Source of the DNA: a virus
Lineage: Duplodnaviria; Heunggongvirae; Uroviricota; Caudoviricetes
Strand: one strand, 5' to 3'
DNA length: 20,876 bases
Virus record (IMG/VR): IMGVR_UViG_2537562015_000013
The notes under the pieces were generated by a model. That model was not told the DNA's origin. It did no database searches and worked only from the letters and a program-made list of their open reading frames with translations. Below, one piece after another: positions 1 to 20,876 of the stretch. The translations under genes and the position numbers were made by a program. Within the stretch, counting starts at the first letter, position 1. The number at the start of each line of letters is the position of its first letter.

Positions 1-90
1 TTGCCTCCCCCCCGTTGATGGGTAAAATAGCCGCAATTTTTCGTTTTCAACAAGCGCGGCGCGATGCCGCTTACTCAAGAAGAAAGAATT

Positions 91-165
91 ATGACGTTGT
101 CTCCTTATTTGCAAGAGGTGGCGAAGCGCCGCACTTTTGCCATTATTTCTCACCCCAATAATTAA
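91..165 (+). pseudogene. prfC: Displaced 5' end of peptide chain release factor 3 gene: 22 native codons ([22 protein letters not shown]), then two foreign codons and a stop
   Basis: Translation from ATG 91 matches the RF3 N-terminus as I recall it, then diverges after CACCCC (151-156) into AAT AAT TAA; the GTP-binding P-loop that should follow is absent. Sits directly upstream of the integrase. Confidence 0.6.
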
Positions 166-318
166 GCCCAAATTAAAGCTCTTTTACTCTTTCAAAATCC
201 TTTCAGTTAATTGAACTTGAGCTATATAACTCATTTAAATACATTTGGTTATGTGGCTTCTTTAATTGAAAATTCTTTCATGTAACTTTAAATCGATCAG
301 TTTGCTTTCATCAAAAAT

Positions 319-377
319 CTGTACATATGCTTGTACATAATGTACAAAACAGCAGAGGTGTTTTGCGATTTGTACAA
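319..377. promoter_or_regulatory. Cluster of four TGTACA hexamers, including a 17-bp palindrome TTGTACATAATGTACAA, immediately upstream of int
   Basis: TGTACA at 320-325, 332-337, 341-346 and 371-376; the palindrome spans 331-347; the int start codon is at 386. Candidate operator or arm-type sites. Confidence 0.4.
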
Positions 378-385
378 GGTGAGTA

Positions 386-1609
386 ATGGCGTTGTCTGAT
401 GCGTGGTTGCGTTCAGTCGTTGGAAAGGAACGTGATAAGGTTTTGGTTAAATCCGATCGTGATGGTCTGTCTGTCAGAGTATCACCGAAAGGTCGCGTAG
501 TGTTCCAATATCGTTATCAATGGGCAGGGAAAGGTGAGCGTCTTGATATCGGAACTTACCCGGCAACTGGATTAAAAGAGGCCAGAGAAGAAGTTATCCG
601 TCTCCGTGGTGAACTTGAGTCAAACCGTAATCCACGATTGGTCAAGCAGGCTGAAAAACGAAAAGCTACTGAAGCCATGACGGTAGAGTCTGTGATCCGT
701 GCCTGGTATGAAGCATATTGTGTAAAAAATAAAAAAGGTTCTGAACAGATACTCCGCTCGTTTGAGCTGCACCTGTTCTCTAAAATCGGGAATATCCCTC
801 ACGATGCAGCTACATTGCATGATTGGTTAGAAGTCCTGGAGCCTCTTAGCACTAAGACTCCAGCAATAGCAGACCGATTGCTAATTAACGCAAAGCAGGC
901 CCATGTCTGGGCGTATAAGAGAAAGCTCATTGAAACTCGCCCGCTGTCGGATATCACGGGTAAAGATATGGATATCCGTAAAGGTCAGAAGAAACGGTTT
1001 CTGACACATGATGAAATTAAAATCCTTTATGCTGCGATCGATGGTTCTCGAATGGTTCCTAAATACCGGGCCTTCATTAAGCTATTGCTGCATTTTGGCT
1101 GCCGTAGTTCAGAGCTAATTACTGCCAGGGTGGGCGATTTTGATTTCATTAATAAGGTATGGACTGTACCACCAGAACGACATAAGACTGGAGAGATAAC
1201 AGGCGAACCGCTAAAGAGGCCCATTATTGAACCGGTGGAGGAGCTTATAAAGAACGCTATCTCTATGAACAATGGTTCCGATATGCTTTTTACTAAGGAA
1301 GGAAGCAGGGAACCCGTTGGTCGAACATCATTGCAGTCGCTGCCTTACAATTTAATGCAGTACGCATGGAGGCGTTTGGGGCATCAATTCCCTCATTGGT
1401 CTCTTCATGATTTGAGGCGAACAGCACGAACAAACTTTTCTGATCTTACTGCTCCTCATATTGCAGAAATAATGCTCGGCCATAAACTGCCAGGGGTTTG
1501 GCAGGTTTATGACCAGAGCGATTATCTAGAAGAACAGCGTAAAGCATATCAGGCATGGTGGGAGAGAGTTGAATCGATCGTTACTTGTACTGGCCCAGAA
1601 TCTACCTGA
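386..1609 (+). CDS. int: Tyrosine site-specific integrase (P4/CP4-57-like)
   Basis: 407-aa ORF with an N-terminal arm-binding-type domain and a C-terminal catalytic region containing HDLRRTARTNFSDL and a LGH...Y tail; SD-like AAGGTGAG upstream; located next to the att junction. Confidence 0.93.
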   Translation: MALSDAWLRSVVGKERDKVLVKSDRDGLSVRVSPKGRVVFQYRYQWAGKGERLDIGTYPATGLKEAREEVIRLRGELESNRNPRLVKQAEKRKATEAMTVESVIRAWYEAYCVKNKKGSEQILRSFELHLFSKIGNIPHDAATLHDWLEVLEPLSTKTPAIADRLLINAKQAHVWAYKRKLIETRPLSDITGKDMDIRKGQKKRFLTHDEIKILYAAIDGSRMVPKYRAFIKLLLHFGCRSSELITARVGDFDFINKVWTVPPERHKTGEITGEPLKRPIIEPVEELIKNAISMNNGSDMLFTKEGSREPVGRTSLQSLPYNLMQYAWRRLGHQFPHWSLHDLRRTARTNFSDLTAPHIAEIMLGHKLPGVWQVYDQSDYLEEQRKAYQAWWERVESIVTCTGPEST

Positions 1610-1805
1610 CAGCTTGCGTAGCCCTGACAGTCTGTTTTGAGCGAACAGTGGACATTTTCAATGGCATTCTTGAGTAGGTTACGCTTAGACCAGAAGTAAG
1701 AGGTGATAGAATTATCAACAATACATAAAACATAGGGGATCCTTATTGATTTATTGATCTTGACCAACTTATGTGATGCAGTATGTCTTTAACTTGTATT
1801 ACTAT

Positions 1806-1829
1806 TATCTTTATCTTTATCTTTATCTT
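1806..1829. repeat. Perfect tandem hexamer repeat (TATCTT)x4 in the upstream region of the cargo gene
   Basis: Four exact copies at 1806-1811, 1812-1817, 1818-1823 and 1824-1829, about 40-65 bp upstream of ATG 1872. Confidence 0.9.
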
Positions 1830-1871
1830 GTTGTTTCTAATAAACTTATCTTATTTCAGAAAGGAGTTTCT

Positions 1872-3572
1872 ATGCATTTAGTCACGAAATCTTATTTCGA
1901 TGCCTTTTGCAAAGCATTCGCTGCGCCCTATGAGGAGACCAAAAATTTTGAGGCGTTTGTGAACTATTGTGCTTTTTCAAAATACTCAGGCGACAAAGTT
2001 GAGGTCAGTGATCTTGTGTATGAAGGCCCGGACCCTGGTATTGATGGAGCATTTTTATTTTTAGACGACAGAGCCATTTTTTCAACTGAAGAACTTCAGG
2101 AGATTTTCCAAAACTCACGTCGCGAGTTTCAAGTTTCATTAGTATTCACGCAAGCTAAGTCATCGGAGAAGTGGAGCAAACAGGAAATAGACTCTTACAT
2201 TGCGTCAATAAGAGATTATCTTTCACCAGCGCCACAACAACCCCACAGTGAATATCTAGCGGACTTTAAAAAAATGTTCAACTTGATATTTGCTAATATC
2301 GGCAGAGTCAAAAATGGCCTTCCAGACTTATACGCATATTTTTTTAGTGCTGCACAAAATACAGAGGCCAGAGAAATAAAAGCTGCATTTGCATCGGGTG
2401 AAAAAAGCTTAAAGTCACTCGGGTTTTCACATGAAACATCCTTCATTATGGCTCACAAAGACATGATTCATGAGCTTTGGCTTGCTGCGGAAGGTCCAAT
2501 AGAAGCTAAACTTCCTACAATAGGCTATGCTCCATTCCCAGCGGCCCCTAATATTAATAATGCCTATGTAGCTACAGTCAAAGCTCGTAGTTTTATTGAT
2601 TCTATACTTAAAGACAAAAATGGAAACCCTCGAAAAAAATTATTCGAAGAAAATGTTAGAGATTTTCTGGGAATTGATGGTGACGTAAATTCAGAAATTG
2701 CAGGAACACTAGATACTGATGGAAAAAAAGCAAGATTTGGTTTAATGAATAATGGAGTGACAATAGTTGCATCAAGCGTGAGGCCTGCAGGGCAAGAAAT
2801 TTTTATACGAGATTTTCAAATTGTTAATGGATGTCAAACGTCTAATGTTCTTATATCAAAAGACATTCAAGTAGATGAATCAGTTAGTTTAATGATTAAA
2901 TTAATTGAAACCGATGAGCCAGCGATCCTTGATGACATTGTACGAGCTACGAATAGACAATCTAAAGTTGAAGATGCACAGTTCATTTCAACGCTAAAAA
3001 AATTAAGGGAATTAGAACATTATTTTAATGCTAAAGGTGCTATTGAAGGAAATAAAATTTATTTTGAGAGAAGAAAGGGGCAGTATAGTTCAGAAAGTAT
3101 AGCTCCAGTACGCATATTTGATATCAGAGAAGTTGCGCGAGCATATGCTGCTATTGTTATGATGAGACCAGATTATTCCAGTCGTTATCCAAATAGGTTA
3201 ACTGGTGACTTACTTAATGAGGTTTTCTCTTCCGATGCCCTCGAGGATGATTATTATATATCTTGCTATTGCTTGTATAGGCTAAAGGCTCTTATCTCAA
3301 ATAAGAGGTTTGATGGGAAGTATTCAAAATTACGCTGGCATATTCTAACTGCTGCGTCAAAATACTGTGGTAATAATTATAAGGCTTGGGGGTTCAAAAA
3401 TAAAAATGAAGCTCTTCATAACTTATTCTCAATGAATGATGGGGAGTGGTTTGAAAAACTTGAGAGTTTAGTAAAAATAGCTATACCAGATCCGGATATT
3501 TCTCGAGACTTACTAAAGTCGCAGCCTTTAACATCAACGATTCTCAAAAGTGTTGATAGCGTACCTAAATAA
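1872..3572 (+). CDS. AT-rich cargo ORF, about 566 aa; putative AIPR-like abortive-infection (phage resistance) protein
   Basis: Long ORF with SD AAGGAG 5 nt before ATG 1872 (the track ORF from 1773 includes translation of the hexamer repeat and is unlikely to be the real start). Composition is clearly more AT-rich than the flanking phage genes. Contains FGLMNNGVTIV...FQIVNGCQTS, which I recall as resembling the conserved core of the AIPR family; this is unverified. Confidence 0.8.
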   Translation: MHLVTKSYFDAFCKAFAAPYEETKNFEAFVNYCAFSKYSGDKVEVSDLVYEGPDPGIDGAFLFLDDRAIFSTEELQEIFQNSRREFQVSLVFTQAKSSEKWSKQEIDSYIASIRDYLSPAPQQPHSEYLADFKKMFNLIFANIGRVKNGLPDLYAYFFSAAQNTEAREIKAAFASGEKSLKSLGFSHETSFIMAHKDMIHELWLAAEGPIEAKLPTIGYAPFPAAPNINNAYVATVKARSFIDSILKDKNGNPRKKLFEENVRDFLGIDGDVNSEIAGTLDTDGKKARFGLMNNGVTIVASSVRPAGQEIFIRDFQIVNGCQTSNVLISKDIQVDESVSLMIKLIETDEPAILDDIVRATNRQSKVEDAQFISTLKKLRELEHYFNAKGAIEGNKIYFERRKGQYSSESIAPVRIFDIREVARAYAAIVMMRPDYSSRYPNRLTGDLLNEVFSSDALEDDYYISCYCLYRLKALISNKRFDGKYSKLRWHILTAASKYCGNNYKAWGFKNKNEALHNLFSMNDGEWFEKLESLVKIAIPDPDISRDLLKSQPLTSTILKSVDSVPK

Positions 3573-3579
3573 AGAGAAG

Positions 3580-3598
3580 GGAAGCTTATTGCTTCCCA
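3580..3598. terminator. Hairpin GGGAAGC-TTATT-GCTTCCC between the convergent cargo gene and the AlpA-like gene
   Basis: Perfect 7-bp stem with a 5-nt loop 8 bp after the cargo gene stop; a T-rich run follows on the minus strand (CTTCTCTTTATTT), so it may also terminate the leftward operon. Confidence 0.45.
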
Positions 3599-3810
3599 AT
3601 AAATTAACACACTTATAGAACCCTTGACTTAAACTTTTTACTGGTTCTCTCAGATATCGATAATTTTATAGGTTGTATCATAGCGTGATCGTCTTCAAGA
3701 GAAACAACTTAACATTAAATTAGCAACGTTTGCTCTTGGCACAGACTTGACTGTCAGATTAGTTTGGTCTGTGCCATAGATATGTCAGCTCCCATCTGAG
3801 ATAATACACG

Positions 3811-4005
3811 TTACTCAATAACTCCAGCAAATCTGTATATCTTGCGTGATGCCCATTTATTTGGGCAGGATTTAATATCAGGATCTGGAAAGTCAGGCCT
3901 GTATTTCTGGCCAGTTCTCCTGTTTACGCTGTTCCAGCGAAGAACAGTCGATACTGAAACGCCACAGAAGTCGGCGACTTGTTTAGTTGTCATTAAGTTG
4001 TTCAT
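3811..4005 (-). CDS. AlpA-family small DNA-binding protein (excisionase-like regulator)
   Basis: 64 aa; HTH-like TTKQVADFCGVSVSTVLRW followed by a W...FP.P...W pattern resembling AlpA/Xis-type proteins; strong SD AGGAGGTG; start overlaps the stop of the upstream gene. Confidence 0.6.
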   Translation of the reverse strand: MNNLMTTKQVADFCGVSVSTVLRWNSVNRRTGQKYRPDFPDPDIKSCPNKWASRKIYRFAGVIE

Positions 4006-4625
4006 TACTTCACCTCCTGCGGCGGCTCCGGTAGCGGCATCCAGTGGGTTACTTTCGATGCCGGTTCTTCCCTATCGTCAGTAACTGCCCACCATTTGTT
4101 TCTCGACCAATCGTAATACCCTTCGAAGGTATCGCACTCAGTCCAGCCGTAAGGCTTCCCCCAACACCAAACATACTGTTTATCGTTCGGCATTCGCTCA
4201 CTACAGCTTATCCAACCATCCGGAGTTACTGGAGAGTTGCCCGACAGCTTGTTCAACTTGTAAGTCTGGCTTACAGGTTCGGCACCATGAAGCATGGCGG
4301 CGCGGCAGGCGTTCCAGCCTTCATCAAAACCGACTATGCCATTATTTAAAGACGGACGAGCATCTGGCACCACCGGCACTGGCTTGGCTATATATAGCGG
4401 CTGAACATACCAGCCCTTTGATAACCAACTGTCAGCAATGTTTTTACTCCTCGTTATTGCCGGAATACCTAAGCCATTTTCTGAATGCAGCCATGCCACC
4501 GGCTCCTCTTCTAGCGATGCCAGAGCAATTTCATAAGCACGGCGCTCAATATCGTCTCGAACCTCTAGGCTGCTGATTCGTTCTTTGATTTCTTTAATCA
4601 GTTCTTTATCGGTAAATGTGGTCAT
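4005..4625 (-). CDS. DUF551-like phage protein
   Basis: 206 aa; Trp-rich C-terminus WISCSERMPNDKQYVWCW...THWMPLPEPP typical of DUF551-type prophage proteins; SD GGAGG; translationally coupled to its neighbours. Confidence 0.65.
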   Translation of the reverse strand: MTTFTDKELIKEIKERISSLEVRDDIERRAYEIALASLEEEPVAWLHSENGLGIPAITRSKNIADSWLSKGWYVQPLYIAKPVPVVPDARPSLNNGIVGFDEGWNACRAAMLHGAEPVSQTYKLNKLSGNSPVTPDGWISCSERMPNDKQYVWCWGKPYGWTECDTFEGYYDWSRNKWWAVTDDREEPASKVTHWMPLPEPPQEVK

Positions 4626-4987
4626 TATGCTCCAGCCTCCGGTGCTTTTGGCATTACTGCCCAGTGAGTGATATTGACGTTTTCAAGGTCCCCGACCTGA
4701 AATGTCCACTGCCATTCTCCGGTTTCTTTTTGCCCCCATGTATACCAGAGAGAACGCCAGCCAATCAGCCAGCCTTCTCCATTAGCATCAAATAACAAAA
4801 CACTTTCATTTGCTGGTGGCAGTTCAGTTGACACTGGTATTACTTTGTTTTCCTGTGCTGCACATTTAGCTTCAAGCGCATCGAATTTACGCACTAGGTA
4901 TTCAGCATCCGTTTCATTCACTTTCAGATCTCGCGGTACACATCTCCCACGAAGAAACCCTTCCATTTCGAAAACATTCATGCGCAT
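4625..4987 (-). CDS. Second small DUF551-like phage protein
   Basis: 120 aa; C-terminus GEWQWTFQVGDLENVNITHWAVMPKAPE repeats the W...THW..P motif; SD GGAG; overlaps both flanking genes. Confidence 0.55.
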   Translation of the reverse strand: MRMNVFEMEGFLRGRCVPRDLKVNETDAEYLVRKFDALEAKCAAQENKVIPVSTELPPANESVLLFDANGEGWLIGWRSLWYTWGQKETGEWQWTFQVGDLENVNITHWAVMPKAPEAGA

Positions 4988-5514
4988 TTGCGTAACTCCG
5001 ATAATTCGTTAAAGCGTTCCATAAACATCCCGTAGGCATGGCCTGGAGCCAGTGGAATCACGTTGAACATCTCTGTTGCCGGGATACCTTCCAGCACAGG
5101 CCAGAAAGAGCCATCATCAAGCCCGAGATCGCGGCGTTCGGTTGCCAGCATAATGAGATCGGCATATTTCACTGGCGTGCTCATAACAGGAGGTAACCCG
5201 TATTTCTCACGGATTACGGCGTCTATTTTTTCTTCCATCCGTTTATAGTCAGGAAGAAGTCGTTTCAGTGGTGCGGGGATGTCCTGGCAATATGCTTCTG
5301 TTGCATCATGCATTAAAGCTTCAAAAGCAAATTCCTGCGGCACCAGCTGGCTGCAAAGCACCGCATGTTGGGCGACGCTGTAGAAGTGAGAAAGATGACC
5401 GGCAAAGCGGCAGATATTTGAAAGGGAAAACGCGATATCGTTAATAACGATGTCGTCTTTATTTATCTTGTCATAATAAAAATGCTTCCCGGAAAAAGTT
5501 TTAATAAATGACAT
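4978..5514 (-). CDS. HD-domain phosphohydrolase (YfdR-like putative 5'-deoxynucleotidase)
   Basis: H...HD signature (SVAQHAV ... LMHDATEAY). I place the start at the internal Met (MSFIKTF...) because GGAG sits about 8 nt upstream; the track ORF extends to 5577. Confidence 0.7.
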   Translation of the reverse strand: MSFIKTFSGKHFYYDKINKDDIVINDIAFSLSNICRFAGHLSHFYSVAQHAVLCSQLVPQEFAFEALMHDATEAYCQDIPAPLKRLLPDYKRMEEKIDAVIREKYGLPPVMSTPVKYADLIMLATERRDLGLDDGSFWPVLEGIPATEMFNVIPLAPGHAYGMFMERFNELSELRKCA

Positions 5515-5642
5515 TTTGTTCTCCACTTTATATGCGCTGCACCGCGCTGAATTTTGGTTAAAGAAAACCCTCGCCATCAGGCGATTATTGAGTTAATTAC
5601 GTTTCCATAAATGCCCCCGCAGGGGCATTTGCAGTAATGAAA

Positions 5643-6467
5643 TCAGGCGGTGAAAGTACCAATAAAGGTTTCTACTTTGCTGTCTTTGAATTTTTCAACA
5701 AGCAGATCACGAAATTCGTTAGCCATTTCTTCCTGCACTGCTTCCAGCTGAATAATGCGCAGAACCAGTACAGGGCGATCACCAGTGATAATGCTGAGGC
5801 GTAATTTAAACGGACGTTCTTTCAGGCCTTCAAACGGAACGCATTTAAACTCAAATGCTACTGGCATAATGTCTTTGGTTTTCGCTTCGACAGACTCCAT
5901 CAGAGAGCGTTTGCCGCTGAAGTCATTGTCTTCAAAATCAGCGGTCTGGTTTGCTTCAATCGTGATTTTACGGACCGCCGCAGCCGCTTTTGTTGCCTGA
6001 ATGGCGTCACCATTAGCATCAAAGCCCACAAGGTAGTCGGCCCAGTCTTCAATCCATTCTGCCAGTGACTTCTGGGAGTTACGCTCGCCGTTAACAGACA
6101 ACAGGGCAGAGAACGGTGCTGTCTTTTTCAGTTTGAGAGTGGCGGTGTTATCTGCGTGACCTGGTTCATCAATAGTACCCAGGTTAAGCACACTGACGGC
6201 TCGCATATTATCAGCATCGATAAAGCAGCGGGTGCCTTCATCTGCAAGATCTTTAGAATAACGGGTAAAGTCATCGATGCTGGCAGTGGAAAGCGCACCA
6301 CGGAAACGGAAGCGATTTAAATTAAATTTTTCCAGATCATGAATGCGGAAATTCTCAGGCAATGCCACAGCATCGGCACCAATCTTACTGATAATTTCAT
6401 TAACACCCTGAGCAGAAATAAGGGCATGGATTTGATTAATTGCGGTTGTGTCTAAGTTCTGAGACAT
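5643..6467 (-). CDS. YfdQ-family (DUF2303-like) prophage protein
   Basis: 274-aa ORF with an SD (GAGG) upstream; sequence resembles the YfdQ protein of CPS-53-type prophages as I remember it. Confidence 0.65.
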
Positions 6468-6532
6468 AATAAGTCCTCACTATATAAAGATATTCAGTGA
6501 TGAGATAAATAATCAGTTTATTAAAAACGATA

Positions 6533-6707
6533 TTAACGACCTGCTGCGCGGAGTTTTCCGTCAGGTTCACCGGCAAGAGTCAGTAATTGTCCCTGGTCTT
6601 CCTGCAGAATAGTCAGGCGACCACCGCGATTGACATACATCGGCGTTTCGGTGGTGTCTTCTTCGGAAATTTTCCCGCGGTTAGTCGGGCGAACATATGA
6701 GAGTTTG
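6533..6707 (-). pseudogene. 3' fragment of a leftward early gene truncated by IS1
   Basis: The reading frame runs straight into the IS1 left end at 6708 with no native start codon (the track ORF begins on a TTG inside IS1); it lies in the operon directly upstream of the YfdQ-like gene. Confidence 0.45.
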
Positions 6708-6762
6708 GGTGATGCTGCCAACTTACTGATTTAGTGTATGATGGTGTTTTTGAGGTGCTCCA

Positions 6763-7038
6763 GTGGCTTCTGTTTCTATCAGCTGTCCCTCCTGTTCAGC
6801 TACTGACGGGGTGGTGCGTAACGGCAAAAGCACCGCCGGACATCAGCGCTATCTCTGCTCTCACTGCCGTAAAACATGGCAACTGCAGTTCACTTACACC
6901 GCTTCTCAACCCGGTACGCACCAGAAAATCATTGATATGGCCATGAATGGCGTTGGATGCCGGGCAACTGCCCGCATTATGGGCGTTGGCCTCAACACGG
7001 TTTTACGTCACTTAAAAAACTCAGGCCGCAGTCGGTAA
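6763..7038 (+). CDS. insA: IS1 InsA protein
   Basis: 91-aa product [43 protein letters not shown]...; the A6C slippery motif (TTAAAAAAC, about 7012-7020) lies near its 3' end. Confidence 0.93.
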
Positions 7039-7460
7039 CCTCGCGCATACAACCGGGCAGTGATGTGATTGTCTGCGCGGAAATGGACGAACAGTGGGGC
7101 TACGTCGGTGCTAAATCACGTCAGCGCTGGCTGTTTTACGCGTATGACAGGATACGGAGGACAGTTGTGGCGCACGTTTTCGGTGAACGCACTCTGGCCA
7201 CACTGGCGCGTCTTCTGAGCCTGCTGTCGGCCTTTGAGGTCGTGGTATGGATGACGGATGGCTGGCCGCTGTATGAATCCCGCCTGAAGGGAAAGCTGCA
7301 CGTAATCAGCAAGCGTTACACTCAGCGCATTGAGCGACATAACCTGAATCTGAGACAACATCTGGCAAGGCTGGGACGGAAGTCACTGTCGTTCTCAAAA
7401 TCGGTGGAGCTGCATGACAAGGTCATCGGGCATTATCTGAACATAAAACACTATCAGTAA
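6957..7460 (+). CDS. insB: IS1 InsB reading frame (made as the InsAB' transposase by -1 frameshift)
   Basis: 167-aa frame [27 protein letters not shown]...HYLNIKHYQ overlapping the insA 3' end. Confidence 0.9.
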
Positions 7461-7801
7461 GTTGGAGTCACTACCCCGCCGCCGCAGTCCTTCATTTCTT
7501 ACCTGCTGACAAGTGGGTAACGCCACGCATGATGACGAGAACTACCGGAGTAAGCGAAGCCCGGTGCCAGTTAATACTGACTCAGTTAGTTCTGGCGGGT
7601 CTGGCGAAGGATAACGGCGGGTACGGGAATAAATTCAGACGCTGCCAGTAATGGCGGTTTCCTGCTGTGAAAATGGGCGGCTGGTGGGTGTTGGTAGCAC
7701 CTGCCAGCCATTCGCTCATGCTTACTGGTCACAAGCGAACCACGGCCCACTGCTTTAGCGCAAAAGCAGAGTGAGCCTACCAGAGTTACGCTTACTGATC
7801 C

Positions 7802-8854
7802 ATGAAAAATACTGTAAAAATAAACAGTGTTGATTTAATCAACGCTGATTGCCTGCATTTTATTCAGTCCCTGCCTGATGATTCCATTGACCTGATTGTT
7901 ACCGATCCGCCGTACTTCAAGGTGAAACCCAACGGCTGGGACAATCAGTGGAAAGGGGACGAAGATTACCTTAAGTGGCTGGACCACTGTCTGGCCCAGT
8001 TCTGGCGGGTGTTAAAACCTGCCGGAAGCCTTTACCTGTTCTGTGGGCATCGCCTGGCATCTGATATTGAGATCATGATGCGTGAACGTTTCAACGTGCT
8101 TAACCATATCATCTGGGCGAAGCCGTCCGGACGTTGGAATGGGTGTAATAAAGAAAGTCTGCGCGCATATTTTCCTGCCACAGAGCGCGTTCTGTTTGCT
8201 GAACATTACCAGGGGCCATATCGCGGCAAAAGTGACGGCTATGCGGCAAAAGAAAGGGAACTCAAACAGCACATAATGGCACCGCTGATATCGTATTTCA
8301 GGGATGCTCGTGCCGAACTGGGTATAACGGCAAAACAAATTGCCGAAGCCACAGGTAAGAAAAATATGGTTTCCCACTGGTTTGGTGCCAGTCAGTGGCA
8401 GTTGCCGAATGAGGCTGACTATCGGAAGTTACAGGCACTGTTTTCCCGTATAGCGGCAGAGAAGTTTCAGGAACAACAACTGGAACAACCACACCACCAG
8501 CTGGTGGCATCTTATGATTCACTGAATCGCAAATATTCTGAATTGCTGGATGAGTTTAAATCTCTCCGGCGTTATTTCTCCGTATCAGTCTCCGTGCCTT
8601 ATACCGATGTCTGGATGCATAAACCCGTTCAGTTCTACCCGGGTAAACATCCGTGTGAGAAACCGGCGGATATGCTCAGGCAAATAATCAATGCCAGTAG
8701 TCGACCTGGTGATCTGGTTGCTGATTTTTTTATGGGATCCGGTTCCACAATAAAAGCAGCAATGGCGCTGGGGCGTCGGGCCTTAGGTGTTGAGCTTGAG
8801 TCAGAGCGGTTTAACCAGACAGTGAAAGAGATAAACGAGCTGGTGGGGAAATAA
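7802..8854 (+). CDS. DNA methyltransferase, beta-class N6-adenine or N4-cytosine type (orphan)
   Basis: 350 aa; catalytic motif IV DPPY (LIVTDPPYF) near the N-terminus and AdoMet motif I FFMGSGST near the C-terminus; no restriction partner visible; no clear SD before the ATG. Confidence 0.85.
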   Translation: MKNTVKINSVDLINADCLHFIQSLPDDSIDLIVTDPPYFKVKPNGWDNQWKGDEDYLKWLDHCLAQFWRVLKPAGSLYLFCGHRLASDIEIMMRERFNVLNHIIWAKPSGRWNGCNKESLRAYFPATERVLFAEHYQGPYRGKSDGYAAKERELKQHIMAPLISYFRDARAELGITAKQIAEATGKKNMVSHWFGASQWQLPNEADYRKLQALFSRIAAEKFQEQQLEQPHHQLVASYDSLNRKYSELLDEFKSLRRYFSVSVSVPYTDVWMHKPVQFYPGKHPCEKPADMLRQIINASSRPGDLVADFFMGSGSTIKAAMALGRRALGVELESERFNQTVKEINELVGK

Positions 8855-8860
8855 TCTGGT

Positions 8861-8885
8861 GGCCACGTCAGGTGGCCTTTTTATT
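8861..8885 (+). terminator. Candidate intrinsic terminator between the methyltransferase and the holin
   Basis: GGCCAC-GTCAG-GTGGCC hairpin followed by TTTTTATTT, starting 7 bp after the methyltransferase stop; positionally like lambda tR' upstream of S. Confidence 0.45.
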
Positions 8886-8930
8886 TCCAACACAGCACCC
8901 GCAAATAATCGCGAGGTGAGAGATGACGAA

Positions 8931-9266
8931 ATGCCTCATAACCCAAATACCTGGCCGGACTGGCTGGAGTTGTTCCAGAGCTGGTGGCGTGGAGATACGC
9001 CGCTGGGCGCAGTGATTATGTCGATTGTTATGGCTGGTTTGCGCATCGCCTATTTTGGTGGTGGTGGTGGCTGGAAGCGAAAAACGCTCGAGATTTTGCT
9101 ATGTGGCGCTCTGACGTTGACCTTTGCATCCGCGCTTGAGTATGTCGGATGGCCTAAATCGCTTTCTGTTGCCATTGGTGGTGGGGTGGGGCTGATCGGG
9201 GTCGATGCTATTCGTGGGGCTGCAATGCGAGTAATCGGTAACAAGTTCGGTGGCTCTAAGGAGTAA
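8931..9266 (+). CDS. Putative holin (three predicted transmembrane segments, charged C-terminal tail)
   Basis: Sits immediately upstream of the endolysin; hydrophobic stretches LGAVIMSIVMAGLRIAYF, LEILLCGALTLTFASALEYVGW and LSVAIGGGVGLIGVDAI. Start placed at ATG 8931 with GAGG upstream; the track start at 8859 is a GTG inside the terminator hairpin with no SD. Confidence 0.65.
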   Translation: MPHNPNTWPDWLELFQSWWRGDTPLGAVIMSIVMAGLRIAYFGGGGGWKRKTLEILLCGALTLTFASALEYVGWPKSLSVAIGGGVGLIGVDAIRGAAMRVIGNKFGGSKE

Positions 9267-9269
9267 TTT

Positions 9270-9746
9270 ATGCAGGTACTAAATTCCCAGCGTAAAGCTT
9301 TCCTCGATATGTTGGCGTGGTCAGAAGGAACGGATAACGGGCGACAGCCAACCCGCAATCACGGCTACGACGTTATTGTAGGTGGTGAGTTATTCACGGA
9401 TTACTCCGATCACCCTCGCAAACTTGTCACGCTAAACCCCAAACTCAAATCAACAGCAGCCGGACGTTACCAGCTTCTTTCCCGTTGGTGGGATGCCTAT
9501 CGTAAGCAGCTTGGCCTGAAAGACTTCTCTCCAAAAAGCCAGGACGCTGTTGCACTGCAGCAGATTAAGGAGCGTGGCGCTTTACCGATGATTGATCGCG
9601 GTGACATCCGTCAGGCAATCGACCGTTGCAGCAATATCTGGGCTTCACTGCCGGGCGCTGGTTATGGCCAGTTCGAGCATAAGGCTGACAGCCTGATTGC
9701 AAAATTCAAAGAGGCTGGCGGAACGGTCAGAGAGATTGAGGTATGA
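9270..9746 (+). CDS. R: Endolysin, lambda R-type lytic transglycosylase
   Basis: 158 aa, nearly identical to lambda R as I recall it ([22 protein letters not shown]...AGGTVREI). Confidence 0.93.
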
Positions 9747-10210
9747 GCAGAGTCACCGCGATTATTTATGCTCTGGTTATCTGCATCATCGTCTGCCTGT
9801 CGTGGGCGGTCAATCATTACCGTGATAACGCCATCGCCTACAAAGAACAGCGTGATAAAAAAGTCAGTGAGCTGAAGCAGGCGACCGCCACCATTACTGA
9901 CATGCAGATGCGTCAGCGTGATGTTGCTGCGCTCGATGCAAAATACACGAAGGAGTTAGCTGATGCGAAAGCTGAAAATGATGCTCTTCGGCGCAAGCTT
10001 GATAATGGTGGTCGGGTGCTCGTCAAAGGAAAATGCTCTGTGCCATCCTCAGCCGAAACCTCCAGCGCCTCCGGCATGGGCAATGATGCCACCGTCGAAC
10101 TCTCTCCAGTTGCTGGACGAAACGTTCTCGGTATCCGGGACGGAATCATCAGAGACCAGACAGCACTGAGAACGCTTCAGGAATATATCAGGACGCAATG
10201 CCTTCGATGA
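9743..10210 (+). CDS. Rz: Rz inner-membrane spanin
   Basis: 155 aa; N-terminal TM segment and coiled-coil region resembling lambda Rz ([30 protein letters not shown]); overlaps the R stop. Confidence 0.88.
9963..10169 (+). CDS. Rz1: Rz1 outer-membrane lipoprotein spanin, embedded in Rz in the +1 frame
   Basis: 68-aa ORF wholly inside Rz; signal peptide with lipobox ([19 protein letters not shown]) and a Pro-rich mature region ([14 protein letters not shown]); SD AAGGAG 7 nt upstream. Confidence 0.75.
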
Positions 10211-10419
10211 TAGCGATAATTTTACTCATCATCCTTCACATTTGGCTCTGTAGACAGGGTGGTGATCACTTCTGGAGTGAATCCAGATTAAATATCTCAT
10301 TGCTGATGCTTGATATTGAGCATCTTGCGCGCGGTAAGGGGCTGCGTTGAGATAAGAGCCAGTCATTACAAATACCAGGATTTAGCCTCGTATTCGCGGG
10401 GCTTTTTATTGTCATTACA

Positions 10420-10446
10420 AAAGCCACTCCCTACAGAGTGGCTTTG
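10420..10446. terminator. Candidate bidirectional terminator hairpin downstream of the lysis cassette
   Basis: AAAGCCACTC-CCTACA-GAGTGGCTTT: 10-bp stem flanked by an A-run and a T-run; a second GC-rich segment plus T-run (CGCGGGGCTTTTTATT) lies about 25 bp upstream. Confidence 0.4.
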
Positions 10447-10829
10447 ATAATGGTTTATACCCTACACGGGATAACTTAACTGATATCCCTTTTAACGGAT
10501 AAAGGTATTCAAGCCTGACACATCATGCGCTGTATCGTCGCCGTATTCCCGTATTAACAGAGACCGTAGCCCGACGGGGAACTCCTTCTGCGAGAGTGTG
10601 CGGGAATAATCAAAAACGATGCACACCGGGTTTTTACCGCGTTTATGGTTCGCGGGTTTGTCCCTCATGCTCGCCAGTCCTGTGCGGGGGTGGAAGAAAC
10701 AGGACACTTACACAGATTCTTGTGGGCACGATGCTATGCCTTTCTGGATTATCCCGATGCCATTCATGCAAGGCGTTGTATCAGACGTTCGTCAGAGCTG
10801 TCAGGCTGACGGGTCCTCCCGGTGGGGTG

Positions 10830-10980
10830 GCCTGCCACGGGGCGGGAGCGTCGCGGAAAAAGGCTAGTTTTTGAAATTTTATTCGTCATCACCACCACTG
10901 TAATTGATTGATATTACAGTGATTTTATTTTTATGGTGTCGATTCTGATTGTTTTTTGTTCATCACCAACACCGTTTGCC
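10830..10980. other. Candidate cos site (cosN-like core and cosB-like region) for lambda-type packaging
   Basis: CACGGGGCGGGAGCGTCGCGG followed by an AT-rich TAGTTTTTGAAATTTTAT closely parallels the lambda cos sequence as I recall it (CGGGGCGGCGACCTCGCGG ... TATTTATGAAAATTTT); it lies about 185 bp before the terminase small-subunit start, as cosN does relative to Nu1. Two TCATCACCA(C/A)CAC copies follow at about 10885 and 10959. Confidence 0.5.
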
Positions 10981-11025
10981 TAAAGTTGTTCGCAAGATGC
11001 ATGTTTAAAACATTCTGGAGCGGGT

Positions 11026-11520
11026 ATGGATCGAGAGTTAAAAAATCTGACGCTGAATATCAGTCAACTGGCGGCATTGTCAGGTGTACATCGCCAGACT
11101 GCTGCGGCAAGGCTGCAAAATCTACCCGTTGCAGGGGGGCATGAAAGCAACCTCAAGCTTTATCGGGTGGTTGATATTGTGTCGGCATTTCTGGCATTAC
11201 CACCGCCGGTTGCAGAAGGCGAAATGGACGCGCATGAGCGCAAAGCCTGGTATCAGTCTGAACGTGAGCGTCTTAAGTTCGAACAGGAAACGGCACAACT
11301 CATTCCGGCCAGTGATGTCAGACGGGAGTTTGCCATCTGGGCAAAAGCGGTCGTGCAGGTGCTGGAGACATTACCGGATATTCTTGAACGTGACTGCGGT
11401 CTGCAGCCTGCCGCTGTGAGCCGTGTTCAGTCCATTATTGATGATCTTCGCGATCAGATAGCCCTGCGGGTGACTGAAGCAGGTGCGGATGATGAGGAGG
11501 AATTACAGCAGGAGGAGTAA
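11026..11520 (+). CDS. Terminase small subunit (Nu1-like DNA-recognition subunit)
   Basis: 164 aa; N-terminal HTH-like segment (LNISQLAALSGVHRQTAAARL), coiled-coil middle, acidic tail; stop overlaps the terminase large-subunit start; follows the cos-like region. Confidence 0.7.
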   Translation: MDRELKNLTLNISQLAALSGVHRQTAAARLQNLPVAGGHESNLKLYRVVDIVSAFLALPPPVAEGEMDAHERKAWYQSERERLKFEQETAQLIPASDVRREFAIWAKAVVQVLETLPDILERDCGLQPAAVSRVQSIIDDLRDQIALRVTEAGADDEEELQQEE

Positions 11521-13622
11521 TGCTGAATCAGGAAACCGCAAAGGCAGCACGAACCGATTCAGGTTATATCCTTCGCGCACCGAGACGAATGCGGGTTGCT
11601 GATGCCGTTGCTCAGTATATGCGGGTGCCCATGGGGGCAGGGAACTCAGTCCCGTGGGATCCGCTGGTGGCACCGTATGTTATTGAGCCTATGAACTGCC
11701 TGGCCTCGCGTGAATACGACGCAGTGATATTTGTTGGCCCGGCACGAACCGGCAAGACTATCGGCCTGATTGACGGCTGGGTGATTTACAACGTGATTTG
11801 CGATCCTGCTGATATGCTGATTATTCAGATGACGGAGGAAAAAGCCCGCGAACACTCCAAAAAACGACTCGCCAGAACGTTTCGCGTCAGCCCGGAAGTG
11901 GTCAGTCGCCTGAGTCCGAACAAAAATGACAACAACGTTTATGACAGAACATTCCTTGCTGGTAACTACCTGAAAATCGGCTGGCCGTCAGTCAATATCA
12001 TGTCCTCATCAGATTATAAATGCGTCGCGCTGACGGATTATGATCGTTTTCCGGAAGATATTGATGGCGAGGGGGATGCTTTCTCTCTTGCCTCAAAACG
12101 TACCACAACATTTATGTCCAGTGGTATGACGCTGGTGGAGAGTTCCCCCGGCAGGGATGTGAAGGATGTGAAATGGCGACGGACTTCACCGCATGAGGCT
12201 CCACCAACCACGGGGATACTGTCGCTCTATAACCGTGGCGATCGCCGTCGCTGGTACTGGCCCTGTCCACACTGTGGTGAGTATTTTCAGCCCTGCGGCG
12301 ATGTGGTTGCTGGTTTCCGTGATATTGCCGATCCCGTTCTGGCAAGTGAGGCGGCTTATATTCAGTGTCCTTCCTGTTCAGGACGGATTATGCCTGAACA
12401 AAAACGTGAGCTGAACGGACGTGGGGTCTGGTTGCGGGATGGTGAATCCATCAATGCGGATGGCAGTCGTTATGGTGATCCCCGACGCTCACGTATTGCG
12501 TCATTCTGGATGGAGGGGCCGGCAGCTGCTTACCAGACACTCTCGCAACTCGTTTACAAACTGCTTACTGCAGAACAGGAATACGAAACAACCGGAAGTG
12601 AAGAAACACTCAAGACGGTTATCAATACCGACTGGGGATTACCTTATCTTCCCCGCGCCAGCATGGAGCAACGAAAAAGTGAACTGCTTGAGCAGCGGGC
12701 AGAGCCAGTTCCTTCCCGCAGTGTGCCGGATGGCGTTAATTTTCTTGTGGCGACAGTGGATGTGCAGGCGGGACGTCATCGCCGTTTTGTGGTTCAGGTA
12801 ACGGGCTATGGCAGCCGTGGCGAACGCTGGATTATTGATCGTTACAACATCACGCAGTCATTGCGCGGTGACTGCGACGGGGAGAGCCAGCGAATTGATC
12901 CGGCCAGCTACCCGGAAGACTGGGATGTCCTGCTGACGGATGTTTTTCATAAAAGCTGGCCGCTGGCCTCCGATCCTTCTCAACAAATGCGACTGATGGC
13001 AATGGCGGTGGACTCCGGCGGTGAAGACGGGGTCACTGATAATGCCTATAAATTCTGGCGTCGTTGCCGTCGTGATGGCCTTGGTAAACGTATTTACCTG
13101 TTTAAGGGTGACAGCATCCGGCGCGCAAAACTGATCAGCCGTACATTCCCTGATAACACCGGACGAACGGGCCGCCGGGCGCAGGCCGCAGGTGATGTGC
13201 CGCTCTGGCTTCTTCAGACGGATGCCCTGAAAGACCGGGTGAATAACGCGTTATGGCGTGACTCGCCAGGTCCCGGCTATGTGCATTTCCCTGACTGGCT
13301 GGGGAGCTGGTTTTACGACGAACTGACGTATGAAGAGCGGAGCAGTGACGGGAAATGGAGTAAGCCGGGTCGCGGTGCCAACGAAGCTTTTGACCTGATG
13401 GTGTATGCCGAGGCTCTGGTCATTCTGCATGGATACGAAAAGATCCGCTGGCCGGATGCACCGGAGTGGGCGAGCCGGGAAACCTGGCTGGAGTGTGTCC
13501 CGGACAGTACCGAACCGTCACCCTCACCGGAACCGGTATCCACGCCTGTTAAAAAACAAAAACGGAAGAAAACAGTAACTGACGATGTTAACCCCTGGCT
13601 GACTTCCGGAGGATGGTTATGA
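11520..13622 (+). CDS. Terminase large subunit (lambda gpA family)
   Basis: 700 aa; Walker A GPARTGKT; CPHCG metal-binding motif as in lambda gpA (WYWPCPHCGEYFQ); strong SD GGAGGAG. Confidence 0.93.
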   Translation: MLNQETAKAARTDSGYILRAPRRMRVADAVAQYMRVPMGAGNSVPWDPLVAPYVIEPMNCLASREYDAVIFVGPARTGKTIGLIDGWVIYNVICDPADMLIIQMTEEKAREHSKKRLARTFRVSPEVVSRLSPNKNDNNVYDRTFLAGNYLKIGWPSVNIMSSSDYKCVALTDYDRFPEDIDGEGDAFSLASKRTTTFMSSGMTLVESSPGRDVKDVKWRRTSPHEAPPTTGILSLYNRGDRRRWYWPCPHCGEYFQPCGDVVAGFRDIADPVLASEAAYIQCPSCSGRIMPEQKRELNGRGVWLRDGESINADGSRYGDPRRSRIASFWMEGPAAAYQTLSQLVYKLLTAEQEYETTGSEETLKTVINTDWGLPYLPRASMEQRKSELLEQRAEPVPSRSVPDGVNFLVATVDVQAGRHRRFVVQVTGYGSRGERWIIDRYNITQSLRGDCDGESQRIDPASYPEDWDVLLTDVFHKSWPLASDPSQQMRLMAMAVDSGGEDGVTDNAYKFWRRCRRDGLGKRIYLFKGDSIRRAKLISRTFPDNTGRTGRRAQAAGDVPLWLLQTDALKDRVNNALWRDSPGPGYVHFPDWLGSWFYDELTYEERSSDGKWSKPGRGANEAFDLMVYAEALVILHGYEKIRWPDAPEWASRETWLECVPDSTEPSPSPEPVSTPVKKQKRKKTVTDDVNPWLTSGGWL

Positions 13623-13831
13623 ACCAGAATGATATCGAAGCCATGATTCAGCGTTATACGGAAGCTGAAATGGCGGTGCTGGACGGAAAATCCGTCACCT
13701 TTAATGGTCAGCAGATGACCATGGAAAACTTATCTGAGATCCGGCAGGGACGGCAGGAGTGGGAGCGCCGCCTTGCGGCTCTGATTACACGACGACGGGG
13801 GCATCCCGGGTACCGGCTGGCGAGGTTCTGA
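13619..13831 (+). CDS. gpW-like head-tail joining protein
   Basis: About 70 aa; C-terminal RRRGHPGYRLARF resembles the lambda gpW C-terminus; coupled to both neighbours by ATGA overlaps. Start placed at the second ATG (13619) for SD spacing. Confidence 0.7.
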   Translation: MNQNDIEAMIQRYTEAEMAVLDGKSVTFNGQQMTMENLSEIRQGRQEWERRLAALITRRRGHPGYRLARF

Positions 13832-15339
13832 TGGCAATTCTTGATGATGTGATTGGCGTTTTTTCACCAGGATGGAAAGCGGCAAGGCTGCGTTCCCGGG
13901 CGGTGATCCAGGCTTATGAGGCCGTAAAAACGACGCGGACACACAAAGCCCGGCGGGAAAACCGAACTGCCGACCAGTTAAGCCAGTACGGGGCCGTGTC
14001 GTTACGTGAGCAGGCCCGTTACCTTGATAACAACCACGATCTGGTCATTGGTGTATTTGACAAGCTGGAAGAACGGGTGGTGGGGAAAAACGGGATTATT
14101 GTCGAGCCACATCCGGTATTACGCAATGGGGCCATTGCCCGTGATCTGGCTGCGGAGATTCGCACCCGATGGAGTGAATGGTCTGTCAGCCCGGAAGTCA
14201 CCGGGCAGTTTACCCGTCCGATGCTGGAACGTCTGATGCTGCGTACCTGGCTGCGCGATGGTGAGGTGTTTGCCCAGATGGTTTCCGGGCGCATAAACAG
14301 CCTGACGCCTTCTGCCGGTGTTCATTTCTGGCTGGAGGCGCTCGAGCCGGACTTTATTCCCATGACCAGTGATGAGAGCAACAGGCTGAATCAGGGCGTG
14401 TTTGTTGATGACTGGGGGCGTCCCGAAAAATATCTGGTGTATAAAAGCCGTCCCGTATCCGGACGGCAGATGGAAACCAAAGAAGTGGATGCAGAGCGAA
14501 TGCTGCATCTTAAATTTGTTCGCCGTCTGCACCAGATGCGCGGGACGTCTTTATTGTCCGGTGTGCTGATCCGCCTCAGTGCTCTGAAAGAGTATGAAGA
14601 TTCTGAGCTGACTGCAGCAAGGATCGCCGCTGCTCTGGGGATGTACATCCGGAAAGGCGACGGGCAGAGCTATGAAGCGGATGGTAATGGCAGCAAGGAT
14701 AAGGAACGCGAGCTTACCATTCAGCCAGGCATTATTTACGATGATCTGAAACCCGGCGAAGAAATCGGAATGGTGAAGTCGGATCGCCCCAATCCTAACC
14801 TTGAAACTTTTCGTAATGGTCAGTTGCGTGCCGTGGCGGCGGGCAGTCGTCTGAGTTTTTCCAGTACAGCGCGCAACTATAACGGCACTTACAGCGCCCA
14901 GCGTCAGGAGCTGGTTGAATCCACTGATGGCTACCTGATCCTGCAGGACTGGTTTATTGGTGCCGTCACCCGTCCGATGTATCGTGCCTGGCTGAAACAG
15001 GCTGTGGCATCCGGTGTTATCAGGCTACCCCGCGATCTTGACCGTTCTTCACTGTATACCGCGGTGTATTCCGGACCGGTGATGCCGTGGATTGACCCTG
15101 TTAAGGAGGCTGAGGCCTGGAAAATCCAGATTCGTGGTGGAGCGGCGACAGAATCAGACTGGGTACGTGCTGGTGGTCGTAATCCGGATGATGTCAAACG
15201 TCGGCGCAAGGCCGAAATTGATGAAAACCGCAAACTGGATCTGGTATTTGATACCGATCCGGCCAGTGATAAAGGAGGCAGCAGTGCCGCAACGAAACGA
15301 CAGGAGCCGCAGCACACCGACGACCAGTCCGAAGAATAA
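13831..15339 (+). CDS. Portal protein (lambda gpB-like)
   Basis: About 503 aa from ATG 13831 (SD GAGGT); the size and the A-W-B-C gene order match lambda head genes; the track ORF from 13759 overlaps gpW in the same frame. Confidence 0.85.
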
Positions 15340-15352
15340 TTCCTGGTTCAGG

Positions 15353-17215
15353 ATGCAGGCTGGTCACCAGAGTGACGCGGATATTTATATTTATGACGAG
15401 ATTGGTTTCTGGGGTGTTACAGCGAAGCAGTTTATCAGTGATCTGAATGCACTGGGCGATATCACCCACATTAATCTCCATATTAATTCACCGGGTGGCG
15501 ATGTCTTTGAAGGCATCGCCATTTTTAATGCGCTGAAAACACATGGTGCGTCCATTACCGTTTATGTCGACGGTGTGGCGGCGTCAATGGCGTCGGTCAT
15601 TGCGATGGTGGGAAACCCGGTCATTATGCCGGAAAACACCTTCATGATGATTCATAAACCATTTGGCTTTACGGGCGGTGATGCGGAGGACATGCGCACC
15701 TATGCCGACCTGCTCGATAAAGTTGAGGCGGTTCTGTTACCCGCTTATGCACAGAAAACCGGGAAAACCACCGATGAAATTGCTGCCATGCTGGCGGATG
15801 AGACCTGGATGTCCGGTGCCGAATGTCTGGCACATGGATTTGCTGATCAGGTAACGCCAGCCGTTAAGGCAATGGCATGTATTCAGTCAAAACGTACAGA
15901 GGAATTTAAAAAGATGCCGGAATCCATTCGAAACATGATTACTCCGCCACGCAACAGTGCTCCACGCGTACAGGATGATGAACCTGCAGCCTCCCGGACG
16001 CCAGTGCAGGCAGCAGCACCCGTGGTGGATGAAAACAGTATCCGTGCGCAGGTAGCCGCCAGTATCAATATCAAACCGGGCCATGATTATTACTTTTATA
16101 TCCGCAGTGTGAACACCGTTGGCAAATCGGCATTCGTGGAGGCTGTTGGTCAGCCGAGTGATGATGCATCCGGCTATCTGGATTTTTTCAAAGGAGAGAT
16201 AGGGAAAACCCATCTGGCTCAGGAGTTGTGGACGCAGATTGATAACGGTCAGCTTGCGCCTGACCTGGCTGAAATCAGGATGTCCATTACGGATGTCAGC
16301 AATGAAATCACGCAGACCGTCAATAAGAAACTGGAAGACCAGAGTGCAGCGATCCAGCAGATACAGAAGGTTCAGGTTGATACAAATAATAACCTGAACA
16401 GCATGTGGGCTGTGAAGCTGCAGCAGATGCAGGACGGACGCCTTTATATCGCGGGTATTGGTGCCGGTATTGAGAACACCCCTGACGGCATGCAGAGTCA
16501 GGTGCTGCTGGCGGCAGACAGGATTGCGATGATTAATCCTGCGAATGGCAACACAAAGCCGATGTTTGTTGGTCAGGGCGATCAGATATTCATGAACGAA
16601 GTGTTCCTGAAATACCTGACGGCTCCCACCATTACCAGCGGCGGTAATCCTCCGGCATTTTCCCTGACACCGGACGGGCGGCTGACGGCGAAAAATGCAG
16701 ATATCAGCGGTAACGTGAATGCGAACTCCGGGACGCTCAACAATGTCACGATTAATCAGAACTGCCGGATTCTGGGAAAACTGTCAGCCAACCAGATTGA
16801 AGGCGATATTGTTAAAACGGTGGGCAAAGCTTTCCCCCGTGACTCCCGTGCACCGGAACGGTGGCCATCAGGGACCATTACCGTCAGGGTTTATGACGAT
16901 CAGCCGTTTGACCGGCAAATTGTTATTCCAGCGGTGGCTTTCAGCGGTGCCAGACATGAACGGGAGAATAGCGATACTTATTCGTCATGCCGCCTGATAG
17001 TGAAGAAAAACGGGGCTGAAATTTATAACCGAACGGCTCTGGATAATACTCTGATTTACACGGGTGTTATTGATATGCCTGCAGGCAGTGGCGTAATGAC
17101 ACTGGAGTTTTCGGTATCAGCATGGTGGGTAAATGGCTGGTATCCCACAGCAAGTATCAGCGATTTGCTGGTTGTGGTGATGAAGAAAGCCACTGCAGGC
17201 ATCATGATTAGCTGA
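15353..17215 (+). CDS. Chimeric ORF: prohead protease (gpC/ClpP-like, clan SK) N-terminal domain fused in frame to the C-terminal part of a J-like tail tip host-specificity protein; probable deletion remnant
   Basis: N-terminus carries protease motifs ([22 protein letters not shown]). From about 16066 the sequence ([27 protein letters not shown] ... [39 protein letters not shown] ... MPAGSG) parallels the C-terminal region of lambda J as I recall it. Confidence 0.75.
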
Positions 17216-17233
17216 ATTTTATAACCCAGATAC

Positions 17234-17260
17234 GGGCGCCAGAAATGGCGCCTTTTTTAT
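17234..17260 (+). terminator. Intrinsic terminator after the J-derived ORF
   Basis: GGCGCC-AGAAAT-GGCGCC hairpin followed by TTTTTTATTT. Confidence 0.7.
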
Positions 17261-17273
17261 TTGTGGAGTGAAT

Positions 17274-19619: not shown

Positions 19620-19897
19620 AAGATTTAACACTCAAATTTGCAGACAGGGCCGACTTTTCGGCCTTTATGGAGAGTATTGGCTATTATGATGACGAGTCGA
19701 TGCAGGATGATATTCTTATTGACGTGATAGGTAACGTGTACAAAGAAACCGGAGAACTGACTGAAGATGGCGAACCGGTATGTGTTAAGGAAGACGGATA
19801 TTTTGTAAACGTGCGCATCATTAATGATGTAAAAAAATCGTCAATATTCGATAAATACGCGGTTGTTGTTGAGCATCAACTTCGTGGCTGGATGTGA
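19616..19897 (+). CDS. Hypothetical acidic protein translationally coupled to stf (possible fiber chaperone or assembly factor)
   Basis: 93-aa ORF; its ATG overlaps the stf stop (ATGA); SD GGGGGAGAG; no motif I recognise; occupies the position of tfa but does not resemble Tfa. Confidence 0.5.
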   Translation: MKDLTLKFADRADFSAFMESIGYYDDESMQDDILIDVIGNVYKETGELTEDGEPVCVKEDGYFVNVRIINDVKKSSIFDKYAVVVEHQLRGWM

Positions 19898-19906
19898 GGG
19901 AGACAA

Positions 19907-20611: not shown

Positions 20612-20621
20612 AGGAGGAGTA

Positions 20622-20876
20622 ATGGATATAACACCTTTCCTTCATGCGCTTTGTGCTGTGGCTGCGCAGCTACTGATTGGTCTTTTTACCGGGAACTGGG
20701 CTTACGGGGCGATAGCCGGTTGTACGTTCTTCATTGCGCGTGAACACACCCAGGCAGAATATCGCTGGATTGAAATGTTCGGGCATGGCAAGCGAATGAA
20801 TATGCCGTGGTGGGGCGGTTTTGATCCGCGCGCGTGGGATGTGGCAAGCCTGATGGATTTTGCTGTGCCGGTGGTG
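20622..20876 (+). CDS. Hypothetical membrane protein, 5' part only (runs off the window)
   Basis: Strong SD AAGGAGG before ATG 20622; hydrophobic N-terminus (FLHALCAVAAQLLIGLFTGNWAYGAIAGCTFFIA) followed by REH..EY and a W/G-rich segment; no track entry because no stop lies within the window. Confidence 0.5.
   Translation, partial: MDITPFLHALCAVAAQLLIGLFTGNWAYGAIAGCTFFIAREHTQAEYRWIEMFGHGKRMNMPWWGGFDPRAWDVASLMDFAVPVV

Follow-up and report, generated by a model that had tools for sequence, protein, structure and literature searches.

The gene prfC, which encodes release factor 3 (RF3), has reportedly been catalogued as the integration site of SXT since 1999, and SXT is said, after the work of Hochhut and Waldor in 1999, to supply both a working promoter and a functional RF3. 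The use of prfC as an insertion site by Stx phages was reported in 2007, the accompanying N-terminal change of RF3 was described by Ogura et al. (PMC2323221), and the gene now routinely serves as a locus for typing. Another phage to be considered here is cdtI (Asakura et al., 2007, as cited in PMC8138268), whose integrase has been grouped with IntSXT in a prfC-targeting "SXT cluster" (Smyshlyaev et al., 2021, PMC8138268). Membership in the SXT/R391 family itself is defined by an Int about 99% identical to IntSXT (PMC2791158), together with a conserved backbone of conjugation genes. Phage 21 and the element e14, both inserted in icd (Wang et al., 1997, as cited in PMC3603311), offer a comparison at another gene.

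The window analyzed here is a stretch of 20,876 nucleotides from a virus record (IMG/VR IMGVR_UViG_2537562015_000013). We are confident that its positions 1-385 are the attL junction of a degraded lambdoid prophage, which was inserted by its own integrase via a 14-bp core, and that a full-length hybrid RF3 is rebuilt at attR. The features on which this reading is based are collected in Table 1.

Table 1. Features of the prophage and its left junction. Positions refer to the window unless stated otherwise; L003 is the corresponding stretch of the E. coli E1739 genome, which continues beyond the window.
Feature	Position	Strand	Basis or remark
Native host yjjG-prfC intergenic DNA with the authentic prfC ribosome-binding site	1-90	+	100% identity to uninterrupted loci
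Promoter-like site TTGCCT-16-TAAAAT	1-28	+	9/12 match
Truncated prfC stub, 22 RF3 codons followed by Asn-Asn-stop from prophage DNA	91-165	+	Translation, RefSeq
attL copy of the 14-bp core ATTATTTCTCACCC (Ile-Ile-Ser-His-Pro codons, start of the GTPase P-loop)	142-155	+	Exact identity of attL, attR and attB
P' arm and int upstream region	156-385	+	Contiguous with the attR-side arm in 2H10, cdtI and Ayreon
TGTACA-type repeats, P' arm	320, 332, 341, 371 (span 320-377)		Candidate arm-type Int sites
Tyrosine integrase, 407 aa, prfC-targeting SXT cluster	386-1609	+	Pfam, homology
Degraded lambdoid prophage body	1610-20876, continuing ~2.8 kb past the window to attR		RefSeq annotation of E1739
TGTACA-type repeats, P arm	Four positions, L003 23472-23590 (beyond the window)		

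A sequence-only reading of this DNA had proposed that positions 91-156 encode the first 22 residues of RF3 behind a native upstream region, and this proved right, as window 1-155 is 100% identical to the uninterrupted yjjG-prfC locus of thousands of E. coli genomes, K-12 derivatives included. The alignment breaks off at base 155 and prophage sequence begins at 156, which places the integration in the 5' coding region of prfC, where that reading had located it. Up to the core, all of the 141 bases compared agree between attL and attB; beyond it, agreement with the intact prfC locus drops to 44 of 200 bases, no more than chance would give. Translation of 91-165 gives the 22 native E. coli RF3 residues, then Asn-Asn-stop. 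The two extra codons and the stop had thus been described accurately, with the sole proviso that their placement directly before the integrase gene stands for a gap of 220 nt: the stop codon TAA of the stub occupies 163-165 and the int open reading frame starts at 386. The gene yjjG lies immediately upstream of window position 1, as read in E. coli E1648, a genome near-identical to that of E1739. The RefSeq annotation of E1739 describes 91-159 as a 69-nt "hypothetical protein, incomplete" with a missing C-terminus; this entry can now be annotated as the displaced 5' end of prfC. A search of window 1-385 found no terminator-like hairpin between the prfC promoter region or stub and the start of int, so that the displaced prfC promoter may drive read-through into int in the lysogen.

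The attR junction lies outside the window and was read from the most similar public genome, E. coli E1739 (NZ_CM180506.1), in which 6 of the 20,876 window bases are different; E1648 departs from the window by a 6-bp indel near 1830 and 8 mismatches. The six E1739 differences form two clusters, one in IS1 (7280, 7304, 7343) and one in the head protease gene (16477, 16489, 16516), a distribution that resembles gene conversion or collapse of repeats during assembly and not scattered point mutation. The sequence-only reading had asked for the other prophage end to carry the same core followed by the remainder of prfC in frame, and such an end was found in E1739, where a second copy of ATTATTTCTCACCC lies at +23,513 bp from the first (23.5 kb from core to core). 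The core, which had been expected at about 140-160, is an exact stretch of 14 bp common to attL, attR and attB, and within prfC it corresponds to codons 18-22 of RF3. At attR, phage DNA ending in taaagagacaacaattATGACAAGCCTTTTGGCCGCAGAGGTAGCGAAAAGAAGAACCTTTGCA precedes the core, and GGACGCCGGTAAGACT, the beginning of prfC from codon 23, follows it. The base on the left of the core (141) is a C in attB and attL and an A in attR, and the base on its right flank differs as well. Therefore, strand exchange falls inside window 142-155.

The attP site was reconstructed from the attR arm, the core and the attL arm. The resulting 523 bp are contiguous in the genomes of phages 2H10 (97.9% identity), Ayreon (96.7%) and cdtI (95.6%). 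In a series of Stx2c and Stx1a phage records, these 14 bp bear the label "duplication due to insertion". Among 5,426 complete E. coli genomes, 701 (about 13%) carry the attL junction when at least 80% of window 1-400 has to be matched, and this recurrence argues that the junction is not due to chance. The attR junction was found in 655 of the 5,426 genomes, with prfC annotated beneath the match among the matches listed.

In E1739, a new ATG is located 48 nt upstream of the core at attR and is followed by 21 phage-supplied codons in frame with prfC; a purine-rich ribosome-binding site precedes this ATG at native-like spacing. The rebuilt prfC is annotated by RefSeq as an intact gene of 528 aa (native, 529) in both genomes examined whole. 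Compared with native RF3, the difference is confined to the 7-8 residues preceding the GTPase domain, the Pfam scores of the two proteins are equal, and GTP_EFTU begins at residue 12 instead of 13; the hybrid RF3 of E1648 has one extra residue difference from the K-12 protein downstream of the junction. It had been proposed that the far end of the prophage supplies both N-terminal codons and a replacement promoter. The codons are indeed present. As for the promoter, no sigma-70 match of at least 9/12 was found on the + strand of the 219-nt spacer between dinI and the prfC start (L003 23388-23606), where the best relaxed matches are 8/12.

The host and phage copies of the nine codons EVAKRRTFA differ at 8 nucleotides, all of them synonymous; when 8 substitutions were placed at random 200,000 times, the peptide never came through unchanged. 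From this comparison, the phage-borne prfC start appears to be under coding constraint. It may have operated on the phage itself or on the prfC of an ancestral donor; in either case, what the lysogen encodes is the conserved segment.

The integrase contains the three Pfam domains Arm-DNA-bind_3, Phage_int_M and Phage_integrase. The first of them (PF13356, DUF4102 / Arm-DNA-bind_3) covers residues 3-90 with E=1.8e-16, above the curated cut-off, and the catalytic domain PF00589 corresponds to residues 205-380. Across 14 homologues of 51-84% identity, R240, K267, R344, H366 and Y375 are invariant and H341 is nearly so; these six are the putative catalytic residues. The protein is 98% identical to the Int of cdtI and 39% identical over its full length (E=3e-91) to the Int of R997, a member of SXT/R391. 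Judging from its domains, its insertion in the 5' end of prfC and its relation to the named members, it is to be placed in the IntSXT subgroup of the SXT cluster. A second protein of 413 aa (P0052) was considered as a candidate IntSXT; its gene has no prfC stub in the 326 nt available upstream and lies next to fimbrial genes, and it was therefore rejected as SXT.

Protein searches detected many Int homologues, about 50-84% identical, across Gamma- and Betaproteobacteria. A co-oriented prfC stub is present 197-235 nt upstream of int in 19 of 80 species-representative loci (Int 45-83% identical), and in one further locus of an E. coli strain whose Int is 98% identical. In all these stubs, the RF3 frame departs right after FAIISHP. 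The genera concerned include Pantoea, Serratia, Pseudomonas, Marinobacterium, Methylomonas and Methylobacter, as well as Kangiella, Rheinheimera, Halomonas, Variovorax, Methylibium and Microbulbifer, and the same arrangement of stub and int occurs in Vibrio diabolicus and in two Pseudomonas genomes. Three of the 19 stub-bearing loci belong to the band of 30-48% identity, at 45-48%. For the other homologues of this band, and for all those below 45%, no prfC stub was found within 1.5 kb on both sides and both strands, which suggests other target sites or a wider spacing. Strain NRZ14408 harbors a divergent prophage with a 95% identical attL; it is longer than 49 kb and has a Mu-like prophage inserted in it.

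Both att arms contain TGTACA-type repeats. A near-identical tandem pair TGTACATATGnTTGTACATAAT occurs 44 nt before the start of int and again 17 nt before the phage-borne prfC start. In the 28-kb E1739 stretch made of the window and about 7 kb downstream, TTGTACA is present in 10 copies for 3.0 expected, and 8 of the 10 are situated in the two att arms. The 19 homologous elements contain 36 copies of TGTACA in 4,560 nt of P' arm and 3 in 48,959 nt of adjoining DNA, a difference of ~130-fold. In R997, two copies lie directly ahead of the prfC start that the element carries, and three others within the first 410 nt on the opposite side of the core. Based on their position and conservation, these repeats are probably the arm-type Int binding sites of this integrase family. 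No earlier description of them was found in the literature examined, and they constitute a testable candidate arm-site code for the whole family.

The body of the prophage contains a gene for an AIPR protein, early genes of yfdPQRS type, IS1, a DNA methyltransferase gene, the holin/lysozyme/Rz genes, and terminase, portal, head protease and tail-fibre genes. The prophage measures 23.5 kb, against 46-47 kb for the free phages 2H10 and cdtI, and 44.7-47 kb when Ayreon is counted with them. IS1 (6533-7460) truncates yfdP and occupies the region where the lambdoid immunity and replication genes are expected, and the head protease gene (15284-17215) runs directly into the tail-fibre genes (17274 onward). 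These two features indicate a 23.5-kb remnant and not a complete phage genome, and the prophage is probably not inducible. Related prophages match the window only as far as 16054.

Several genes of this remnant deserve mention for their own sake. The first cargo gene after int (1872-3572, + strand) encodes an AIPR domain and matches AbiU of PADLOC over its full length (E=2.6e-111). At the same place, NRZ14408 has a gene for a CHAT-domain protein, and cdtI and Ayreon have other large open reading frames; given such different contents, the site that follows int has the look of a variable slot for defence genes. Near attR, 141 nt past the window end, L003 21017-22916 (- strand) holds a gene for a defence-associated reverse transcriptase (PADLOC RT_UG17, E=5.9e-159) together with an overlapping gene for a SLATT effector (RTasSLATT, E=7.9e-57). 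A DinI-like gene (L003 23139-23460) adjoins attR and points away from the rebuilt prfC, on the opposite strand. Its predicted promoter, TTGACA-18-AAAAAT, is overlapped by two LexA-box matches of the form CTG-N10-CAG, at 23403 and 23431, which are 150-200 nt away from the phage-borne prfC start. A direct repeat is found in a tail-fibre gene, where 249 bp at 17805-18053 are 84.7% identical to 17994-18242 with an offset of 189 bp, which suggests tandem repeated domains.

The following course of events can be proposed. The prophage's own tyrosine integrase would recombine within the 14-bp core and so split prfC. The authentic promoter region and ribosome-binding site stay on the attL side, where the first 22 codons now belong to a dead stub of 24 codons facing int. 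On the attR side, a phage look-alike of the prfC start, made of a ribosome-binding site, an ATG and 21 codons, is joined in frame through the core to codon 23 and onward, and the lysogen therefore encodes a hybrid RF3 of full length. The core coincides with the beginning of the GTPase domain and its P-loop. The G1 motif is conserved among translational GTPases, and such a conserved target plausibly explains why a single core serves across many hosts.

Considered from the window alone, which displays only one junction, the stub might also have come from a deletion, a rearrangement or an assembly error. The recurrence of an identical junction in 701 independent complete genomes, the existence of a matching attR with the same 14-bp core and the joined attP of free phage genomes refute this origin, to which we give practically no credit. 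A similar fate awaits the idea that the element is an integrative conjugative element of SXT/R391 type. It does share the target codons and a homologous Int with this family, but the Int is just 39% identical, its gene is co-oriented with the stub at 220 nt, an orientation and a distance that differ from those in SXT/R391, and the element carries lambdoid lysis, terminase, portal, head and tail-fibre genes and no conjugation genes. Gene content and Int identity thus make this attribution almost certainly wrong.

Other readings concern the expression of the rebuilt gene. Integration might amount to a swap of expression signals that places RF3 synthesis under phage control in about 1 in 8 E. coli strains, which we regard as unlikely. 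The host prfC promoter and ribosome-binding site would then read toward int, and prfC would rely on the 219-nt phage spacer. In this spacer, a tandem TGTACATA pair, the probable Int arm sites that are conserved between lambdoid phages and SXT/R391 elements, fills the last 40 nt, and the two dinI LexA boxes lie at the other extremity. If this were true, Int occupancy or the SOS response could alter the level of RF3 and, through it, termination and quality control. It is very unlikely, in our opinion, that the insertion is an effective knock-out of prfC, with an open reading frame rebuilt at attR and left unexpressed or poorly expressed. The phage copy keeps its ATG, its ribosome-binding site and nine codons with synonymous changes only, an element-borne start and the codons KRRTFAII are also present in the distantly related R997, and prfC is annotated in every full-length match listed among the 655 attR genomes and intact in the two genomes examined whole. 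Such a conserved start, the shared design of R997 and the annotated prfC are not expected of a useless sequence. A knock-out would nevertheless agree with the stranding of the authentic promoter and ribosome-binding site at attL, and with the scan ahead of the new start, in which no sigma-70 site in the right orientation scored 9/12 or better. Ogura et al. stated that transcription and translation of prfC in such lysogens were not known (PMC2323221). Also, RF3 is dispensable in E. coli, and delta-prfC strains are in routine use (PMC2791158), so that an intact open reading frame says less about function here than it would if the gene were essential. The large survey by Bobay et al. counts prfC among the genes "disrupted" by prophages (PMC3603311). 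According to the junction analysis this label is not strictly right, and lysogens of this kind should not be counted among those with a disrupted prfC. We keep the reading of a full-length hybrid RF3 rebuilt at attR; its transcription from phage DNA and its function are inferred.

Compared with previously described systems, the arrangement resembles most closely those of phages. The Stx1 and Stx2c phages inserted in prfC of non-O157 STEC (PMC2323221; CC119 study, PMC10132054) have the same att site and the same 14-bp duplication; their P arm is 99.3% identical to that of the present prophage, and they cause the same short N-terminal change of RF3. In contrast to these phages, the present element lacks stx as well as the immunity, replication and tail-shaft regions, and carries defence genes instead. 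Phages cdtI, 2H10 and Ayreon share with it the attP and the phage-borne miniature prfC start, but they are complete phages with other cargo (cdtABC in cdtI), whereas the present prophage is degraded.

The SXT/R391 elements (R997, and an integrated element of this family in a Proteus mirabilis chromosome) are more distant. They insert in the same prfC codons, with the core ATTATTTC[C/G]CACCC; they likewise carry a prfC start of their own, with the conserved KRRTFAII codons in R997, and the Int of this family has the same three domains as the window integrase. However, int is convergent with the stub in SXT/R391, about 850 nt away and with xis between them, whereas in the phage family it is co-oriented at 197-235 nt. 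With its 39% identity to the Int of R997 and without conjugation genes, the element falls outside the SXT/R391 family. By the account cited in PMC3603311, phage 21 and e14 in icd, likewise a conserved protein-coding gene, also keep the open reading frame at full length by means of an element-borne, diverged duplicate of the gene end. There, the 3' end is replaced and neither promoter nor start is needed; in prfC, it is the 5' end and all of the expression signals that are replaced. The arrangement, the site and the mechanism are therefore already known, and the finding is correct but ordinary: the prophage belongs, in degraded form, to the cdtI/2H10/Stx-prfC phage group.
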